Assembly: GCA_051362555.1 (NCBI GenBank)
Contig: CM120641.1
Span: 20,026,001-20,090,000, forward strand
DNA length: 64,000 nt
Reading direction: 5' to 3'
Source of the DNA: Lingula anatina
Lineage: Eukaryota > Animalia > Brachiopoda
How positions within the stretch are numbered: the stretch's first letter is position 1; each line of letters starts with the position of its first letter. The notes beneath the pieces are model-generated. The model was not told where the DNA came from. It worked only from the letters and a program-made list of their open reading frames with translations, and made no database searches. This document shows positions 1,618 to 27,478 of this stretch, one piece after another. The position numbers were made by a program, and so were the translations under genes.

Positions 1618-2341
1618 TAAGACCAGGGCCCTTTCTTTTATCAGTTATCAAGATTCAAAATATGCTTAGATAATTAGTAAAATATTTTACAACAGCTTTA
1701 CCTGCATCTATAATCATAATGTATAACTTGAAATATCACTGTACCAGTACTTAGTATAAGATAAGTTTAATAAGAAACTATTAAAACTGCTTTTTATTTT
1801 CCATATATATATATATATCATTTTTTCATAACTCTGTCATTAAAAAAAACAAGTTTGATCCCTTCCTTCATGTTGCTTTTTAAAATCACTGCAAGTTTAT
1901 TTATCCATTGGGTCTTTATGGGGTTAAAGGTATCAGGCAAAAAATCTTAATGAGACATTTTATGCCTCATTAAAACAACCATAAAATGTTTAAGTTTATT
2001 TCAGAAGCAAGTAAATACATGAAATAATTATCATAAATCCAACATTTTTCAACCAAAAGGTGACACAGATGGCAATTTTCTATCTCTGCAAAATATTAAT
2101 TAAATTCAGACCTGAGTAAAAAAAGGAAAAAACAATATAAGAAAGTGTGTACAAAATAAGTCTTCTAGAGCCTTGTATTACTTATTCATATGCTAATACT
2201 ATTGGGTGATGTGGCTGTCGATAATGGGTTAGCAAAGACCCCTCTGTTCCTGTAAGTAGGTCAACCACACATAACAGGTATTACTCAGGTGTGTGCTGTG
2301 GTGAAGATGGAGAGTGTGTGCCCCACCCTGCAACCTCTCTA

Positions 2342-3904
2342 ATGAAGATGAAGAGGAGTTCTCTGAGGAATCTCACAGTTTTTACAGGTATAGCCTGTTT
2401 ATTGTATGTGGGGATTGTCTTCATGGTATGGACTAAATGGGCAGCACCCTCACATCTTGAATCTCAAAGGAATCCAGCTGAGCCATTAAGACTGAGTGAA
2501 AATGAATATAAAAACCAAGTAAGAACTTTACCTGACTCAAGACCAAATGACTGTAAACTGAGGACACAACCTACACAGTGGTTCAAAGTTTCTATTGTGA
2601 TATTTATTACCAATGAAGAAGTTGCTCAAATAGAGTCCACCTTACTATCAGTCCTTGCTAACACACCTAGTAACATACTTCACCAAATACTTCTAGTAAG
2701 TCATAGAACTAGTGTTACTACTGATAAATACTTGGACAAAGCTGCAGCTGACCACAAATCTGTCCAAGTGGTCCAGCTGAAACAAGACGGTGAGCTCACT
2801 TTTAAGTCAAAAATAGTAGCAACTTTGACAGTAGTTACAGGAGATATGATAGTATTTATGGAAGCTGATATGGAGTGCAACAGGATGTGGATTGAGCCTA
2901 TAGTTTCTCACTTGGCTGACCATCCACAGACAGTAGTCATACCAGTACTGGACAACATAGATAAACTTAGTGGAAAATATATAGGAACAGTAAAACCTGT
3001 AAAAACAGGCTTCTCATGGGATCTTCAGTTCATGCACTATGAACCAACATTTACTGAACTTGCCCATGCTGAAAGTGAGGCTGATCCCCTACAAACCCCT
3101 GTCCTGACAGGAAATGTGTTTGCAACCACCAAAGAGAATATAGTAAGTTGGAAACCAGTGCCATTCGAAGGAAGCCTTGAGTTGTCTTTTTATCTCTGGC
3201 TTTGTGGACATGAGATAATTCTCCTCCCATGTTCCAGAGTAGGCAAATACTCTGCTTATTCAGTCAGCAGTTTACCTGTGCAACAACATGTTAATAAAGT
3301 AGCCGACAAATGGTTAGGTCAATACAAGAAATACTTCTATGCAGCAACAGATTACAATAACCCATCTACTTCTAATACTGATGTGAGCATGGAAATCAAT
3401 GAACTAAAGCAAATAAAAAAGTGTCATGACTTTGATTGGTACATGAACACAGTAGTATTGGATCTCTTTAAACCTGTGGGAGACTTAGCAGCTTTTGGAA
3501 CTTTAAAATCACAGCCAAGTTCTATGTGTTTTCATGTTGAAGTCAATCAAAATTTAGAGGGGCTTCGTGGTCAGTGTAGTCCTGCTAGAGAGACAGGGAT
3601 ATTTCAACTAGACGCAGATGGCTTGCTGCGCATCCATGACAGGTGTGTCACAGGAGAAACCCATGGATATGTGACAATGAACGACTGTAACCCTGATGAT
3701 AAAGCCCAAACTTGGACTATTACTTCAAAGAAACAGATAATGCTAAAATCTGGACAGTACTGTCTCATGCATAATACTGATCCAGACAGGGAAAGAAAAG
3801 ACAGACAAGTACTCATGGCACAGGTCTGCAGAGATGATGAAAGCTTTCAACAATTCGTTTTCAGTAACTTTTTTGATCTAAAAAAATTGAAATCTTCCAG
3901 ATAA
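2342..3904 (+). CDS. Intronless polypeptide N-acetylgalactosaminyltransferase-like protein (GT27, ~520 aa): type II TM anchor, GT-A domain, C-terminal ricin-type lectin domain; catalytic motifs degenerate
   Basis: ATG at 2342 (MKMKRSS; the ORF-track start is a GTG). TM segment LTVFTGIACLLYVGIVFMVW; GALNT hallmarks RTLPDSRPNDC, VSIVIF, ECNRMWIEP, VVIPVLDNID, GFSWDLQF, LELSFYLWLCG, PCSRVG, KKCHDFDWY; Cys-spaced ricin repeats with QTW. Possible acceptor ttactcag at 2281-2288; AATAAA at 4235-4240. Confidence 0.9.
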   Translation: MKMKRSSLRNLTVFTGIACLLYVGIVFMVWTKWAAPSHLESQRNPAEPLRLSENEYKNQVRTLPDSRPNDCKLRTQPTQWFKVSIVIFITNEEVAQIESTLLSVLANTPSNILHQILLVSHRTSVTTDKYLDKAAADHKSVQVVQLKQDGELTFKSKIVATLTVVTGDMIVFMEADMECNRMWIEPIVSHLADHPQTVVIPVLDNIDKLSGKYIGTVKPVKTGFSWDLQFMHYEPTFTELAHAESEADPLQTPVLTGNVFATTKENIVSWKPVPFEGSLELSFYLWLCGHEIILLPCSRVGKYSAYSVSSLPVQQHVNKVADKWLGQYKKYFYAATDYNNPSTSNTDVSMEINELKQIKKCHDFDWYMNTVVLDLFKPVGDLAAFGTLKSQPSSMCFHVEVNQNLEGLRGQCSPARETGIFQLDADGLLRIHDRCVTGETHGYVTMNDCNPDDKAQTWTITSKKQIMLKSGQYCLMHNTDPDRERKDRQVLMAQVCRDDESFQQFVFSNFFDLKKLKSSR

Positions 3905-19200: not shown

Positions 19201-22200
19201 ATACAATAATTGGCTTTTTACAAATAACATTTGGTCCTAAAAACACAATTCTCCCTAAAATAAAATTATATTCTACTTCACAATTCATGAACATCTGTTA
19301 AGTATTTTGGGAACATTTCTGGAGTTCATGTTGCCTATTAGTATTTCAGAAGTGGTCATCTACGATGATCAAGTAACACATAAGTCTGTGTTAGTGTTTT
19401 TCATTAAAAATGACTGCTGCATAATTCCCACAAAACATAAGATCTCTCTTTTTCAGTGAAAATTTCACATCTGTAAATGAGGTTTTGAATTTTTTCCTTG
19501 GGTTATTTTACCTCCAATTCCTTCATCAATTCAATTGTCATTCTCTTTTGTTTTTAATTACTGTCTTAATCTAGTTTCAGGATATGATAAAATATTAATT
19601 CAATATTTTGCATTTATATTTTGATTTAAATAATCACAGTGAGCCTGTAACTGTTCGGCAGGTAGTCCCCTTTATGTTTATCAAAAATATTGTATAAACT
19701 ATGACCAGGGAACATTCCATTGCTGCCAAAATTTGAAGTAAACACCACAAATCATTCTACAGCCCTGTGATGTATGTACCTAGAGTAGTGCAGGTATGTG
19801 TCTGATTTCAGGACAATATTTTATGACACAAAATATATCACTAATATTAATAAAATTAACATCAACTCATTATGGCATAGTCTGCTAACAGGAGTCAAAA
19901 TGCATGCTCTTTTTGTGAATGTGTGAAAGGTGACAGAGCCTCTATTGAATGTTCTGATTTGCATTACTATATAAATCTTATTCTTTTATAGAGTTGATAC
20001 TTACTTTTGCTAAACTAGCAGTGAATAACACACACTCAAACATTTCTCCCATTTTCTGTAAGAACTCATCCACATAAGGCCTCTTCAGAACATAAACCTG
20101 TGAAAGAAAAAAAAAACAAAAACAAATAATACATGTATGACTGAATTCTCAAGTGCGTCTTTGGCTCTGTTCACAACCAGGTCAATCCGCAGACTAACTG
20201 AGCCAGGGATCAAATATGGCTCACACTTGAAAGTATGCTACGTAATCCCCTAATGGATTCCCCCACGTCCCATGCACATGGTCACTGCAGGGGCAGAGCA
20301 ATTTTTAAAATCGTTCAAGCTTTCAAGTGGGTCACGCCATATTTTAGTCCGTGGATCAACTAGGTTGTGAACAGAGCTGTTGTGAACATAATATCTAGTA
20401 GTTAAGACAATAGTAGTTATAAACGTGAATTTGGTAAATGAAAACATGCGGTTAAGGAAATAATATAAATGAGATACAGAAAAGACAATGGAACCTCATT
20501 AGCTCATTTTACCCCTTAAACCATAAGACTGACAATGGTTAAACATGCAGGTGTACGGATATAACTCTACAACTTCTTGATATAACATAGTGACTATATC
20601 CAAGGAGCATTATTACCCCTTTCTACGTCAACAACTTTTATTTTGTATATTATTCTTCGTTATATATTTTAAAAAACACTCAACATTTTTAACAGCAGGA
20701 AAATGGGTAATTTTGGAATTATTATAACTGCCACTATGGCCAAGATCTATTTCTAGACAACCACCTTTTAAATACATACCACTCTTCTTAAAATAGGAAA
20801 TAAATCAAATATTACTGTTCTCTGTAACAACAGAACAAGTGCTATTTGCCAAGCACTTGTAAAAACATTTTAACAAGAAGTATGACATTGCTGAAATGTC
20901 AAACATAAGAGAGTACAAGGATCCTGTATTATTTAAATTGTCATCTTATCATGGAATTTCTTTTACTTTAACATCTGTTGCCTAGATTATAAGCTCTGTA
21001 ATATTGCCTGGTAGCATGTCGGAGGTCGTTATCATAAGAAACACGGGACTTGAGGAAATTACTGCAAAGATGCAGGTCTATCATTACACTTCATCTCCTT
21101 GATGGAATGCCAGATTATGTCTTCATGTGACCTCTTCCTTGGGTCACTGCCTCACTGATGTTTTGTACCAAAAGAATGTGATACAACATTCAGTAAAGGT
21201 TAAAGACAAAAGGCTAGAAGGGGAGGACCTGTCCAGGAATGCTATTAAAAATGATGTCTACCAGGTTCTAATAATATTTCATTGTTGTGACAATCACCGT
21301 GAAACAACTCTGATAGAGACTTCCTCAACACATTGATGTTTGGCATTCCTCTGAGCAAAAAACTCACATTCTCAATAGTGTTAAAATAGATCATGGACAA
21401 AGAAAAAAAAATGTCTGAGATACTATTCAGTCTTAATGATTTATACACACGAGGAAGAGGGGCTAAAAATTAACAACTCTGATTGAATCCCAAGACCAAC
21501 ATTTTTTATATCTACTGAAAATATCTATTTAATATTTCCTTGGTTCAGAAGCTCAAAAAATAAGGAATCAACTACAGTTATTGAATGCTTTTCTAATTTC
21601 ATCAGATCTCTTGGCAAACTTCCCAAGTAAGTTTCTGAGTGCACTGTGTCTTCAAATCTGTGTTTGGTCTACAGACTTTCAAGTTTATTCAATACCAACA
21701 AAAGAGCCTGTACTTCTACTAGAATTACAAAGCTTAAATAAAACTGGGATAAGCCTTGATAAATCATTTAGCTTCGCAAAAAAGCAGACACAGCACTATA
21801 CTTTTAGATGGTAAGCAAGTACAGTGAAATGTCTGAGCTGACATACAGCCAAATTTCAAAGGTTTCGATCCAAGTTCATGCCAATGGAAAACTGGGCTAA
21901 CTCTATCACAATTAATACCTAGCCAATAATCTTAAGTCTTAAATCTGGCGTTGCCATTCTAGCACAAAATTGGTGCAACTATTAAATAATATATAAAACC
22001 ATTCATTTTCATTGGCAAATGTCATTTTGGCCTTTGAGGGATATCATTTTTGTACACGTACACCAAGGTCCTCAAAAGCAGGTTTGAGTGAGCTTTTTGC
22101 CAAGATTTAATATGACTGAGCTTAATGGTTCATTATTGACTCAGAATATAACTGAAAGTCGAATAAAAGATGGATTAAGAACTGTAACTTACCTGGTGTA

Positions 22201-25200
22201 TTGTCCCATCTATTTCAACTGGCACAATGAAATCAGCATTATTTACAGGCTGGAAAATAAACAGATAATGATTAATGCAACCAGTAGATACTTATAAGAT
22301 CCTTCCAAGCTATCTCCAGTGCACTGCCATGTAAAGGGCAAAATGATTTCAACTTCAAAAAACCTAATTACTATGACGCAAGACGTTAACTCTCTGTCAT
22401 TTAATCTATACTCTGGCATCACTTGATATCCACTTAGTTGATTAATGTTTTCATCTTTGGTAGTAACACAAATATTTCTCAATTTGTAGGGATTTTTAAT
22501 GACTAGAAGTAAAGATCCACAGTTAAATGTAAAACAAATAAATGAATCTCTTTGGGACAAATATATAAAATTATCGTACTATATTGAAATAGATAAAGTT
22601 TTGAGCTAAGCCACATACTGTTACCAAACTGACCTCTAAAAACAAACATTAGTACAACAGCACCAGTACTGCAGTCTCTAATGATCAGATATATTACTAA
22701 GTTGAAACATACTAAAACTAGAACAATTTTGTAGAAAAGCACAAGGTAAGTGATGATAAAAGCGTTGTTTTTAACAGACAAAGGAATCACTGCACTCAAC
22801 AAGATGAATTATTCACACCAATAATTTATCTAGGTCATTCTTCGCACCTGGAATATGGTAACATACCTCTGGTTTGTTTCATGACTAGCACTGCATGATA
22901 ATGCAAGTTTCACATTTTCAAATGATAAACAGTCCTTTTTGGAGGAGGGGGTGGGGGTGGGAGTGGGGGTGGAGGGAAGTATAGACATGGATTAGAAACA
23001 ACCATCATCAACGTGATGACATGCAAGATAAAAACATTCCTTTTGAAATATGGAAAATTTTTGTGATTGAGGCATGGAACTTGGCCAGATTGTCTGGTCT
23101 TTGGTATAAAATGTTATGCCATAAAAATAACTAGGAAGACAACTGATGAAAAATGGAGTTTGCAGTTCTTTTTTTCTAACTGGCTTCAGGAAAAATGTTA
23201 CGCGAATTGACAGAAGGTGTTACCCAACTTTTTCAAATACTCATCTGGTATGATGTAATCTGTCATTAAGAATAACAGGGTAGGCAGTGTAAAGATGAAT
23301 GTTTTTCCTGCTGTTTTCTCCTTCTTCAGGTATGTGATTTGAACTACCATTCCCATACCTAGATTGATCTAGCAGGATCGACCCATCTCCGAGCTGATTC
23401 TCGTTAACAGCTTCAGTAGGAATGTCAGACATCAGAGTGGCTCAAGCTGAATGTAATTTAGAGAGAAATCTCTCAGAGATTGATCCTGCTAGATCGACCT
23501 AGGTATGGGTCTATAACATTACCTAGCCTTGGGTTGCAATCTCAAAAGTATGAAACTTGCAATTTTTTCTAAATATTTTGTTTTCACAGCCCAATTTGGA
23601 CCTCATTAAATTTCACTTAAAAGAAGGCAAGGGCCTTTGGGAAAAAATCTGTACAACACCGTGCTTAATAAATTAACATTCAAACTGGAAACTTGAAAAT
23701 GATTGAATTCTGCTAAATGTGCCAAAAATTTAAATACGAATATAAGAAACCAATTTGAGAAATGCATCCCATTTACAAAATATACTCACCTTAAATGAAC
23801 TATGCACTAATGTTTCATCAAGGTCTATCACCATGCATTTTTTGCCCATATCTTGATGCCTCTGAGGCTGTAAAAGGTGATGGGCGAGGGGAGGTAGAGG
23901 CTAAACAAAAAACAAGCACATAAAATATTGCAAAATAAAAAAAGAAACATAACCAAAACCACAGCATGCAGTGCATTTCTCCCCAAATCACCTGCAAGAT
24001 GAGCTTTTCTGAAATTGCTGGCAGAGATTTGTATGATCTTATCATATGGCGTTCAACTTTCAGAGACTTCTTCACATCAGATGGATTTTTGAAAATCAAA
24101 TGGCTCCATATACTGATTAGAAAAAAAAGATGAAAACACCCCAAGACAGTGACATTGTTGCACTGTAGAAACAACCTTTATGGCTGACATTCATTATTGC
24201 CAAGACACTTGCCAAAAGTTTTCTTTCAACTGAGCTGCTAACCTTTGGAAAATGTGACTATTGCAATACGAGTATTTATCCTTTAGAGCAAGGTGGGACT
24301 TCTGCAATTCTAGCAGTTCTAGAAGTAGGGCCATGCCATCATTTACGTCTGCGCCATCCATCTCTACCAACAGAAGTTCTAAAAAAACTCACCGTTGTGT
24401 TATGTTAGGAGAAACGACAAACACGCACTACACACTTAACTCACCTGAAAGGTACTGTGAACTAATGTTTCATCTAAATCTATAACCATACAGATTTTAT
24501 TTACATCTCTTGGCCGCACAGCAGGAAGGAGGTATTTTGGAGGTGGCTAGAAACAATCAAGCATTTAATATGTAAAGCAATAAAATAACTAAATTTAAAG
24601 TCAAATCATCAAAACAGTAAATGTCCATTTGGCAATACCTTTTGAGTGAATGTTATATACCCTGCATTCTGCTATCACAATACAGAATGGGGAAAAATTT
24701 TTTAAGGAAAATTTTTAAGTACAGCTCCTGTTATCTTTGTAAGTTAAAATGTCAAAGTCAAATACACCTCCTGTGCTACATACTTTTGTATTTTTCAGTT
24801 GCTGATCATGAGTGGCATACATTTTAGAGGCTATGAAAGCTATAGCTTCAAATATTGAACCACAACCCAACCTACACGTGTTGCACTTGTGAAAAGCCAG
24901 ATAGGGTGCAAATATCTGTGCCACAACAGACTCAGAGTCAAGTTGATAAACCCAGGATGTCATCAATGCCTCTGTTTATGAATTTAACACCTATACCTGC
25001 CAAGCAAAATCCAATCCATCAAGTCCCTGACTTTGGATACAGATTAAATAATGATATCTTTTTATTCAAAAGTCAGACACACAGTTATGATATATAACTC
25101 ATTGGAGAAAGAGAAAAAGGACTAAAGACCAAGTTTTGTATATAATTTCTACATAGCAATGTTTTATCATACATTATGATAAATAACATTCATTTCAATA

Positions 25201-27478
25201 GACTCCTTCCATTGAGATGGCCATAGCAGCTCCATATAACAAATCAATAAAATATATTTTTAAACTTTGCTTCTGACAGACCTATTTAAAAGGAGTGATG
25301 CATCTTTTATTTACCATCAAAATGCTCTAACAGCTATCTTTAACCAATCACAATTATAACACTTAAATTCAGCTTCAAAATGCACAAAACAATATGAAAA
25401 TCTGTGGGGAATGTCAGGAATGCTAATACTAGACTATAAGCATATATTCCCCAGATAAATGACTGAATTTGATGTGCAATATTCTCAGACCAATATTAAA
25501 GTATAACATATTATTTAGCTACCCCCCCCCAAATCACCATCACCCTGTTCAGATATTATTCATTAAATATTCAAGTTGAATAAGCCTGCAGATTGGTACT
25601 GTACCCAAGCATGTTTAAAAAGGGTAGAAATGTGTAAATGTACTAGGGTTCTTGGGGACTTAGATATGCTTTTATCCTGATCAATATTGCCAGGGTCTCA
25701 GTGCTGCTGAGAGAAGTTGAGGAAATTGAAATCCAATGAAACAGCAATAATAGTTTTTGGAAGGCAAAATAAAATAACAAACAGCCATGGGTATCTGGGA
25801 AAAAGAGTTGATGGTCCAAGAGCTATTGAGTGAGGATTATAGGTCTTCAGCATCAGCAAATTAGCATCGGAAAACCCATTTACGCTGTCTGATACAAATG
25901 CAACTGATCATGACATTGGAGTATTAAGCCAAAATGTTCCTGGGCAATCTATAAAGGTGAAGTCAAACCTAGAAATAGACCATCTGTCAAATACAGACTT
26001 GCTGATTAAGTAAAGGGAAAAATCTTTTCAAGTCATTATACAAGACACCTCAGAACCACCAAGCCTATGGGTTCTATTGGGTGGCATTCCTCAACAGGCA
26101 TTGAATAAGTTATTTATTAGATAATTCCTAACAGCAGCAAACACCGATAGGTAAGATTGGTTCATCAAGGCACTAGGCACACCTTAAATGTGTATGTAAG
26201 CATCTTCCGTATCTGTTTTTATTTCTTGGCTACCTGCTTTTCACCACAGAGCAGTAACTACCCTAACCTGCACTTACTCTACAGGTATTTCCAACTTTAA
26301 CCACTGTGTGCTGACTTTAGTTTCATGTTCTGGACAGCTTCCAGGTGGGGGCCATTGGCATTAACAACATGGCTCAATTCCCCCTGACCAAGGTCAGTAC
26401 AAACTGAGCCCGGACTGGTTCGCTCTTACTGATGCTACACAGATATCAGAAAGAAGTGTTAGATATTAAACTGATTGCACAACATGGTGCAGAGACCCTG
26501 GAAATGATATTGTCATGGAGTTATTGCAGTAGTGTTCATTAAAACTGCAATCGGATTTCTCACTTAATGCACAACCTCTCGAAGTAACTTACAACATGCC
26601 TCGGCACAGGGCACAGTGAAACAAGCTCGACTGCCCCAGCTGTGCTGTCAGCTTGCGGGAACCATATTCTCTTGCATGTAAACAGAGGCCTAGATCTCTG
26701 CTAATCTATTGGGGCACAGTTTCTCTAGTTAATATTATCAAGACTAGCAGCCTTGGAACTTTACCAGGCTGTAACAGTATACTGCATACTTAGATTTTTT
26801 CAGGAGCTGTACACAAGAGGCAATCGGAAGAGTTTTTACGCCATAATGAGCAATGAAACTCAAGGGAGTTAAAATGCGAAACACGTTTTGAGTGTTAACC
26901 ACCTAGGTGCTTGTTTGACCTTGCTGCAATTAGCCATACTATTAAAGTATTCACTCGTCTAGAAGAAGTATATTTGTATTTGGTAATATGCTGCATTATC
27001 ATAAGAAGGAATTACATTCGCATGAAGATAGTTTTAACAAGTAATCTTATGTTTGAAAATCTGTATTAATGAAGTAAAACAAATTATTTATACGTCAACA
27101 ATTCTACAGATTTTAAAGATAAAACAAACATCTACAACTTAAAATTTTTACAACCTACAACATGTGCTCTTATATAACAGCCAAGCACTCTGTTCTGTTT
27201 TGATTTTATTTCTAGCAATTTTTCTAGATATTTATCTCCTTACCTTAACAATGCCATTTGGCTGTGAATCTGTATCTGTAGTAGGAACTGGTGTACTTTG
27301 TTGTGCGTGGCTATTATCACCAAAACAACAGAAAAATGAACTGAAGATGCCCCTGTTTCTGGGTTTCTTTAACGTCGACGAGCCTAAAAAACAAAAATAG
27401 TTTGCTTAATTGAAATTGCTTGAAGAAGAAACATAAAATACCTACATATGTTAAGATTTTATATACAAATTTTTTTTT

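Follow-up and report, generated by a model that had tools for sequence, protein, structure and literature searches.

How is a gene spliced that carries the catalytic exon of its enzyme twice, and what does the choice of copy do to the protein? This question is raised by an SCP/CTDSP phosphatase gene of Lingula anatina (LOC106180076, minus strand), located in a stretch of 64,000 nucleotides (nt) of genomic DNA (GCA_051362555.1, contig CM120641.1, positions 20,026,001-20,090,000, forward strand). This stretch is called "the window" below, and all coordinates are window positions. The substrates of SCP phosphatases include the RNA polymerase II tail and signalling proteins such as AKT, and these enzymes hardly vary in their active site. 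In this gene, splicing exchanges the strand that bears the nucleophile and the residues bordering the proline pocket. The original prediction took the two copies, exons A and B, for a mutually exclusive pair. The reading favoured here, with somewhat better than even confidence, is that two old copies of the catalytic exon yield three in-frame mRNAs in sample-dependent proportions, and that the joining of A to B is likely impeded, though not abolished, by a stem predicted in the intervening intron.

The duplicated nucleophile exon

In the six frames of the window, the D.DET motif is found in exons A and B only, with a spacing of 544 nt. The two copies and the constant exons that surround them are the following:

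27244..27383, minus strand: constant upstream exon ("up") with the FFCC motif, from RNA junctions
24546-24445, minus strand: exon A, 102 nt, 34 residues, phase 0-0, TAG acceptor, GTGAGT donor; encodes the N-terminal arm (YLLP), strand β-1, the DxDxT nucleophile motif and the Phe106 equivalent, with S105T and K107Q relative to the family
23900-23790, minus strand: exon B, 111 nt, 37 residues, phase 0-0, TAG acceptor, GTGAGT donor; second copy with a family-like core, its 5' part diverged and three residues longer
22193..22249, minus strand: constant downstream exon ("down"; PVNNADF...HQ), from RNA junctions

A query with exon B returned a single perfect match, the L. anatina RefSeq protein. The catalytic domain is a Pfam NIF domain (PF03031) of the HAD type, with the DxDxT motif and a predicted SCP1-like fold, which places the protein in this family. 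Both exons carry a Phe ten residues past the first Asp, and the upstream exon carries FFCC, as expected of SCPs.

The two copies are homologous at the DNA level, with a local alignment score of 50 against 14.3 ± 1.9 in shuffled sequences (reached in 0 of 200) and 77% identity over 70 nt. The introns flanking them show no residual alignment (scores of 21 against 21.4, and of 19 against 20.6). Over the 16 core codons, the proportion of synonymous differences (pS) is 0.78 and that of nonsynonymous differences (pN) 0.08 (Fisher p = 5e-5); over all 34 codons, the values are 0.76 and 0.27. With pS saturated, pN low and the flanking introns unalignable, the sequences identify A and B as the products of an old duplication, both held by purifying selection. 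Selection on both copies, which the original prediction had suggested from third-position differences, is thus borne out by a dN/dS-type comparison. The homology, the 0-0 phases and the AG/GT sites of the two exons are confirmed too, and every splice site named in that prediction is used in RNA. An assembly artefact is ruled out by the saturated synonymous sites and the splicing of both copies, and a pseudo-exon status of B by the 60 reads spanning its junctions with the upstream and downstream exons. Further gene copies and repeat status were assessed within the window and by read pile-ups.

Splicing of exons A and B in RNA sequencing data

Nine runs carry the same species label, and eight of them (X1, X2, X3, X4, X5, X7, X8 and X9; X6 was left out), from three studies (P1, P2 and P3), were used. 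Between 6 and 30% of each run was read, at a likeness threshold of 95 or 88, and junctions were listed from 3 reads upward. Tissue is unlabelled, library types differ by study, and P3 also differs in genotype, with many differences from the window. Reads per junction, in the order of the runs given above, are:

up to A: 12, 4, 3, 13, 13, 27, 25, 19; total 116
up to B: 0, 0, 0, 0, 0, 5, 9, 16; total 30
A to B: 5, 2, 0, 0, 0, 5, 3, 4; total 19
A to down: 2, 0, 0, 17, 11, 27, 21, 14; total 92
B to down: 5, 2, 1, 0, 0, 6, 7, 9; total 30

The four junctions expected of single-exon forms (27244>24546, 27244>23900, 24445>22249 and 23790>22249) are all found, and mRNAs with A alone and with B alone therefore exist, as originally proposed (92 reads from A to down and 30 from up to B). 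The junction said to be absent, 24445>23900, is present: 19 reads with 13 start places join A to B in five of the eight runs and in two studies, the shorter side measuring up to 65 letters. No junction skipping both exons reached the 3-read listing threshold in the eight runs. The A-only, B-only and A+B forms are all in frame and match three of the four members of the RefSeq protein cluster of the gene:

XP_013419398.1: isoform X1, carries exons A and B
XP_013419399.1: isoform X2, exon B only
XP_013419401.1: isoform X3, exon A only
fourth member: another form with A and B

The proportions of the three forms depend on the sample. Reads for A-only, A+B and B-only number 2, 7 and 0 in P1, 28, 0 and 0 in P2, and 62, 12 and 30 in P3. 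Among the reads leaving the donor of exon A, those that continue into B number 7 of 9 for P1 (95% interval 0.45-0.94), 0 of 28 for P2, 12 of 74 for P3 and 19 of 111 overall. A+B against A-only thus stands at 7 to 2 in P1 and 0 to 28 in P2 (Fisher p = 3.5e-6 on reads, which are not independent samples). Exon B enters the mRNA of P1 via exon A, since 8 reads in this study join B to the downstream exon while 0 of 19 join the upstream exon to B. The splicing rule is therefore at least one exon, mostly one, and at times both. Mutual exclusion, as defined in PMC6071210, means one and only one exon; the Lingula pair fails this definition on its "only one" side, A+B being the main form in P1, while its "never none" side holds among the listed junctions. 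Read-to-window differences in exons A or B were absent among the 40 listed per alignment (104 and 68 more exist); the listing at likeness 88 includes intron positions with 4-5 reads.

A leaky version of the original proposal would keep an ordinary mutually exclusive pair and treat A+B as a leak, or as nuclear RNA yielding little protein. Single-exon forms do make up 122 of the 141 isoform-defining reads, and the P1 runs combine low exon depth with visible intronic depth. This explanation is nevertheless unlikely: the A+B form is in frame, recurs across runs and two studies, exceeds A-only in P1 and is the sole route to B there, and the gene model of Paralvinella palmiformis (see below) likewise joins its two copies.

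The pair otherwise has the features of a tandem duplicated exon substitution, the two exons being adjacent, homologous and in the same phase, each used alone, with functional residues kept. It resembles the KHK, CAMK2D, ACOX1 and PKM cases (Martinez-Gomez et al., PMC9741552) in the age of the duplicate, the catalytic residue kept in both copies with changes adjacent to it, the sample-specific use and the recurrence in orthologues. Those cases are substitutions by definition, whereas co-inclusion in Lingula is in frame, frequent and locally dominant. CTDSP is mentioned neither in the text of PMC9741552 nor in one of its supplement files, although gene tables may lie outside that file.

A predicted stem in the intron between A and B

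A scan of eight pairs drawn from six intron segments, in this single genome, returned one outlier, lying inside the A-B intron. Its two arms are the following:

24352..24436, minus strand: predicted 5' arm of the stem, beginning at intron position +9 (+9..+93)
23963..24051, minus strand: predicted 3' arm, intron positions -151..-63, ending 62 nt upstream of the B acceptor

The partition function pairs 24436-24352 with 23963-24051 in nested helices, with 58 pairs above 0.5 probability, most above 0.9, 10 of them G-U. The duplex of the intron ends reaches -70.9 kcal/mol, against -39.1 ± 4.5 in shuffled sequences (z = -7.05, 0 of 200), and the same end-pairing test gives z values from -1.8 to +0.9 in seven other introns of the gene. 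The best 24-nt duplex is likewise stronger than all of 150 dinucleotide shuffles and all of 51 window pairs taken as background. The opposite-strand duplex amounts to only -35.2 kcal/mol; together with the 10 G-U pairs of 58, this argues that the stem is a property of the pre-mRNA and not a DNA inverted repeat. A decayed inverted-repeat transposon is an unlikely source, the antisense pairing being at background level. Reads neither pile up over the arms nor end loosely there, in contrast to the repeat at 23350-23470, and an Rfam search returned no match. No docking site/selector pair was detected in the single-genome scan of six intron segments, in which seven of the eight pairs are at background energy.

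With the stem closed, 8 nt would remain past the A donor and 62 nt ahead of the B acceptor, an effective intron of about 70 nt. Adenosines at -36 to -21 of the B acceptor, among which the branch point is presumed to lie, would then stand about 35-50 nt from the A donor. PMC7969005 puts the steric limit at about 50 nt and locates branch points usually between -19 and -37 of the acceptor; a closed stem would thus bring the A donor and the likely B branch point to or below this limit. Only one of the two sites, A donor or B acceptor, could then be used, giving A-only or B-only mRNAs, and opening of the stem by trans factors or transcription kinetics would allow A+B to be joined. The original prediction had set aside both frameshift-triggered nonsense-mediated decay and branch-point crowding as causes of exclusivity. 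Its first half stands, frameshift decay being ruled out by the fact that every form is in frame. The second half, argued from an intron too long for steric exclusion, gives way if the predicted end-to-end fold forms.

The same geometry could act in the opposite sense, pulling the A donor near the B acceptor and promoting A+B, with tissue factors yielding the single-exon forms. Introns of about 70 nt, the effective length in the closed state, are spliced well in many animals, and A+B is the main form in P1. This inverse role is rather unlikely, however, given how few reads from the A donor reach B overall (19 of 111, and none of 28 in P2) and that A-only (62) and B-only (30) both exceed A+B (12) in P3.

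Several points weigh against a stem that hinders joining. The stem was picked post hoc as one of eight segment pairs, is predicted from the folding of a single genome, and the fold of the whole intron is only marginally stable relative to shuffles (z = -1.69, 4 of 100). An allele in P3 (24423 A>G) alters a terminal base of the outer helix as folded at minimum energy, and the equivalent intron of L020, a two-copy gene described below, has no end-to-end pairing (z = +1.4; 31 of 40). The threshold of about 50 nt is a mammalian value set beside a Lingula intron with a presumed branch point. On the splicing side, P1 counts are small (9 A-donor reads) with higher intronic depth, and the compared studies are unlabelled for tissue and unlike in library type, P3 also in genotype.

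Two further sequence features touch this intron. A UGCAUG, presumably an RBFOX site, lies at 23970-23965 (minus strand) in the outer helix of the 3' arm; this motif has a frequency of 0.58 per kb gene-wide, about 0.3 being expected in the intron. Its presence in the arm is not above chance by itself and is a lead only; CTGCATGCT is also present in the inter-exon intron of L020. A weaker pairing, with a probability of 0.5-0.9, is predicted between the A acceptor region (24568-24544, minus strand) and the intron past B (23752-23730, minus strand); it lies where the folded sequence ends, and the segment scan gave it background energy.

A long intron between duplicated exons shortened by base pairing recalls Dscam exon 17, for which Yue et al. 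2013 reportedly described steric hindrance combined with RNA structure; in Lingula, the structure is a prediction and the exclusion is leaky. In ATE1 exons 7a/7b (10.1101/2020.06.04.134791) and OGDH exons 4a/4b (PMC7969005), RNA structure or crowding of the 5' splice site and branch point likewise governs a duplicated enzyme pair, and disrupting the ATE1 structure leads to double inclusion. ATE1 relies there on competing pairings and OGDH on distant branch points, whereas Lingula has one non-competing predicted stem. With two exons, one 544-nt intron and one stem, the locus is a compact test case for co-inclusion against exclusion of an in-frame duplicated pair.

Protein products and the same exon in other animals

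The predicted fold superimposes on human SCP1-3 with a template modelling score of 0.97, a root-mean-square deviation of 0.8-1.1 Å and 82% identity. Lingula SCP resembles human SCP1/CTDSP1, SCP2 and SCP3/CTDSPL (PF03031; PDB 2GHQ, 4YGY, 2HHL) in its fold, DxDxT motif, Phe106 and Cys-Cys ahead of the domain; the chains solved for the human proteins correspond to one exon copy only, unlike the Lingula pair. Asp96 is the nucleophile and Phe106 lies in the proline pocket according to two reviews (PMC7281111; PMC4163886), in agreement with the roles originally assigned to these residues, and the former also reports palmitoylation of human SCP1 at Cys44/Cys45. Exon A retains the family 5' arm with a more diverged core, and exon B the family core with a diverged arm. 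The Thr of exon A at Ser105, found in 0 of 162 other homolog windows, sets it apart from the SCP family, and its Gln at Lys107 occurs in 8 of them, the set being insect-heavy.

In an AlphaFold model of the A+B protein (mean predicted local distance difference test, pLDDT, 87.6), B lies in the core and A is unstructured (pLDDT 55-64), and the Pfam NIF match agrees in placing B within the domain. This model and the chain geometry suggest B as the copy at work in the A+B protein: its strand would fill the catalytic core, with A as a 34-residue spacer bearing a spare DxDxT. The functional choice would hence lie mainly between an A-type (T105/Q107) and a B-type (S105/K107) edge beside Phe106, together with a different N-terminal arm. 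On the other side, the alignment supplied to AlphaFold was already in the B register, into which larger alignments likewise fell by the default method, and an attempt in the A register gave a pLDDT of 29.6.

Each exon encodes a whole module (arm, β-1, DxDxT and first insertion-sheet strand) whose 3' end falls in a surface loop, and A+B is sample-specific. Both facts would suit a separate enzyme under regulation, with either of its DxDxT strands able to enter the core, or with the spare strand acting as an inhibitor or as a link between molecules. This is very improbable, though: exon A is unstructured in the model, its conservation is fully accounted for by the abundant A-only form, and looping out 37 residues would be expected to cost stability.

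At least two more invertebrates carry this exon twice, and the edge of the active site may thus be a recurring tuning point. The model of the annelid Paralvinella palmiformis (P0130) contains two consecutive copies, the second intact, the first in frame and degenerate, with Ser in place of the nucleophile Asp; this first copy may be in decay, or may be an alternative exon devoid of catalytic activity. Scanning metagenome contigs recovered 102 loci with this exon, of which 20 (18 distinct genes) show both flanking exons. In one of these 18 genes (L019/L020, on the same contig), the exon occurs in two intact copies, one of 38 and one of 34 codons, separated by 2369 nt; their splice sites are good and their synonymous sites saturated. 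The second L020 copy is identical to that of Paralvinella at 26 of 34 positions, against 19-23 for other intact partners, and both have a C-terminal tail in common, which makes L020 probably an annelid gene. Both pairs are known from gene sequences or models. In L020, a CAG-rich tract and CUG repeats right before its exon B' (3094-3170 and 3860-3890) may pair (-48.9 kcal/mol, without shuffle comparison).

A single exon is found in all six isoforms of P0207, which we take to be the nemertean Lineus, and in the models of Lamellibrachia, Ridgeia, Capitella and scallop. The closest relative recovered, P0073, is sister to Lingula (97/88) and also has a single exon, with an A-like start and a B-like core (25/34 and 27/34 identical). 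The short copy ending in Gln is the first of the two in Lingula and the second of the two in L020, and this tips the balance modestly towards separate duplications in the two lineages. A tree of 34 exon columns, leaving out the degenerate Paralvinella copy, has two resolved groupings only: L020 B' joins Paralvinella B (92/99), and Lingula A joins P0073 (96/98). In seven approximately unbiased (AU) tests, no scenario for the origin of the duplications was rejected (p = 0.39-0.56), and a tree built from the constant exons gives L020 no resolved position. A more far-reaching proposal, of repeated doubling of the nucleophile exon in lophotrochozoan SCPs with the Lingula stem as a three-state switch, would make the third product an alternate-register enzyme with interchangeable DxDxT strands, its active site being rebuilt or damped after translation; it is a speculative, improbable scheme.

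Three two-motif proteins, P0124 (a sturgeon model flagged unverified, its two cores being identical), P0357 and P0272, have the appearance of artefacts or of repeats unrelated to this exon. In the FCP1-like P0270, the DxDxT segment recurs about seven times without change, which probably reflects an assembly artefact. L073 (around 4050) and L089 contain part of a second copy of the 3' end of the exon, about 100 nt past the intact one. No description of a duplicated catalytic exon in SCP genes was found in the literature covered, which mostly excludes subscription journals. RefSeq already lists the three protein models; in the literature searched, no published account of the splicing pattern, of the stem or of the parallel cases was found.

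The remaining coding exons of the Lingula gene are the following:

47563-47488, minus strand: conserved short first coding exon, whose 3' end matches the loose end of 16 reads of run X7 at 27385
32719-31579, minus strand: alternative long first coding exon, about 380 residues of low complexity; junction 31579>27383 in runs X4, X7 and X2, and in RefSeq isoforms X1-X3
20097-20005, 18669-18571, 17958-17872 and 16388-16266, minus strand: four more constant exons of the catalytic domain, from sequence and RNA junctions

Both first coding exons, the short conserved one and that of 380 residues, are spliced to the same constant exon, with a usage that varies among runs. Protein P0123 has an extra insert of 30 residues behind the long first exon. 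An element at 23352-23509, in the intron past exon B, resembles a miniature inverted-repeat transposable element, with 28-nt terminal inverted repeats, and diverged, loose-ended reads pile up deeply over it. Between 16695 and 17798, in the last intron, repeats also draw reads on both strands, many with loose ends. Neighbouring genes in the window include an uninterrupted glycosyltransferase-2/ricin-lectin frame, GALNT-like, at 2225-3901 (plus strand), a kinase exon, presumably of the CDKL type, at 6782-6408 (minus strand), and a Kazal-repeat gene at 61000-58700 (minus strand).
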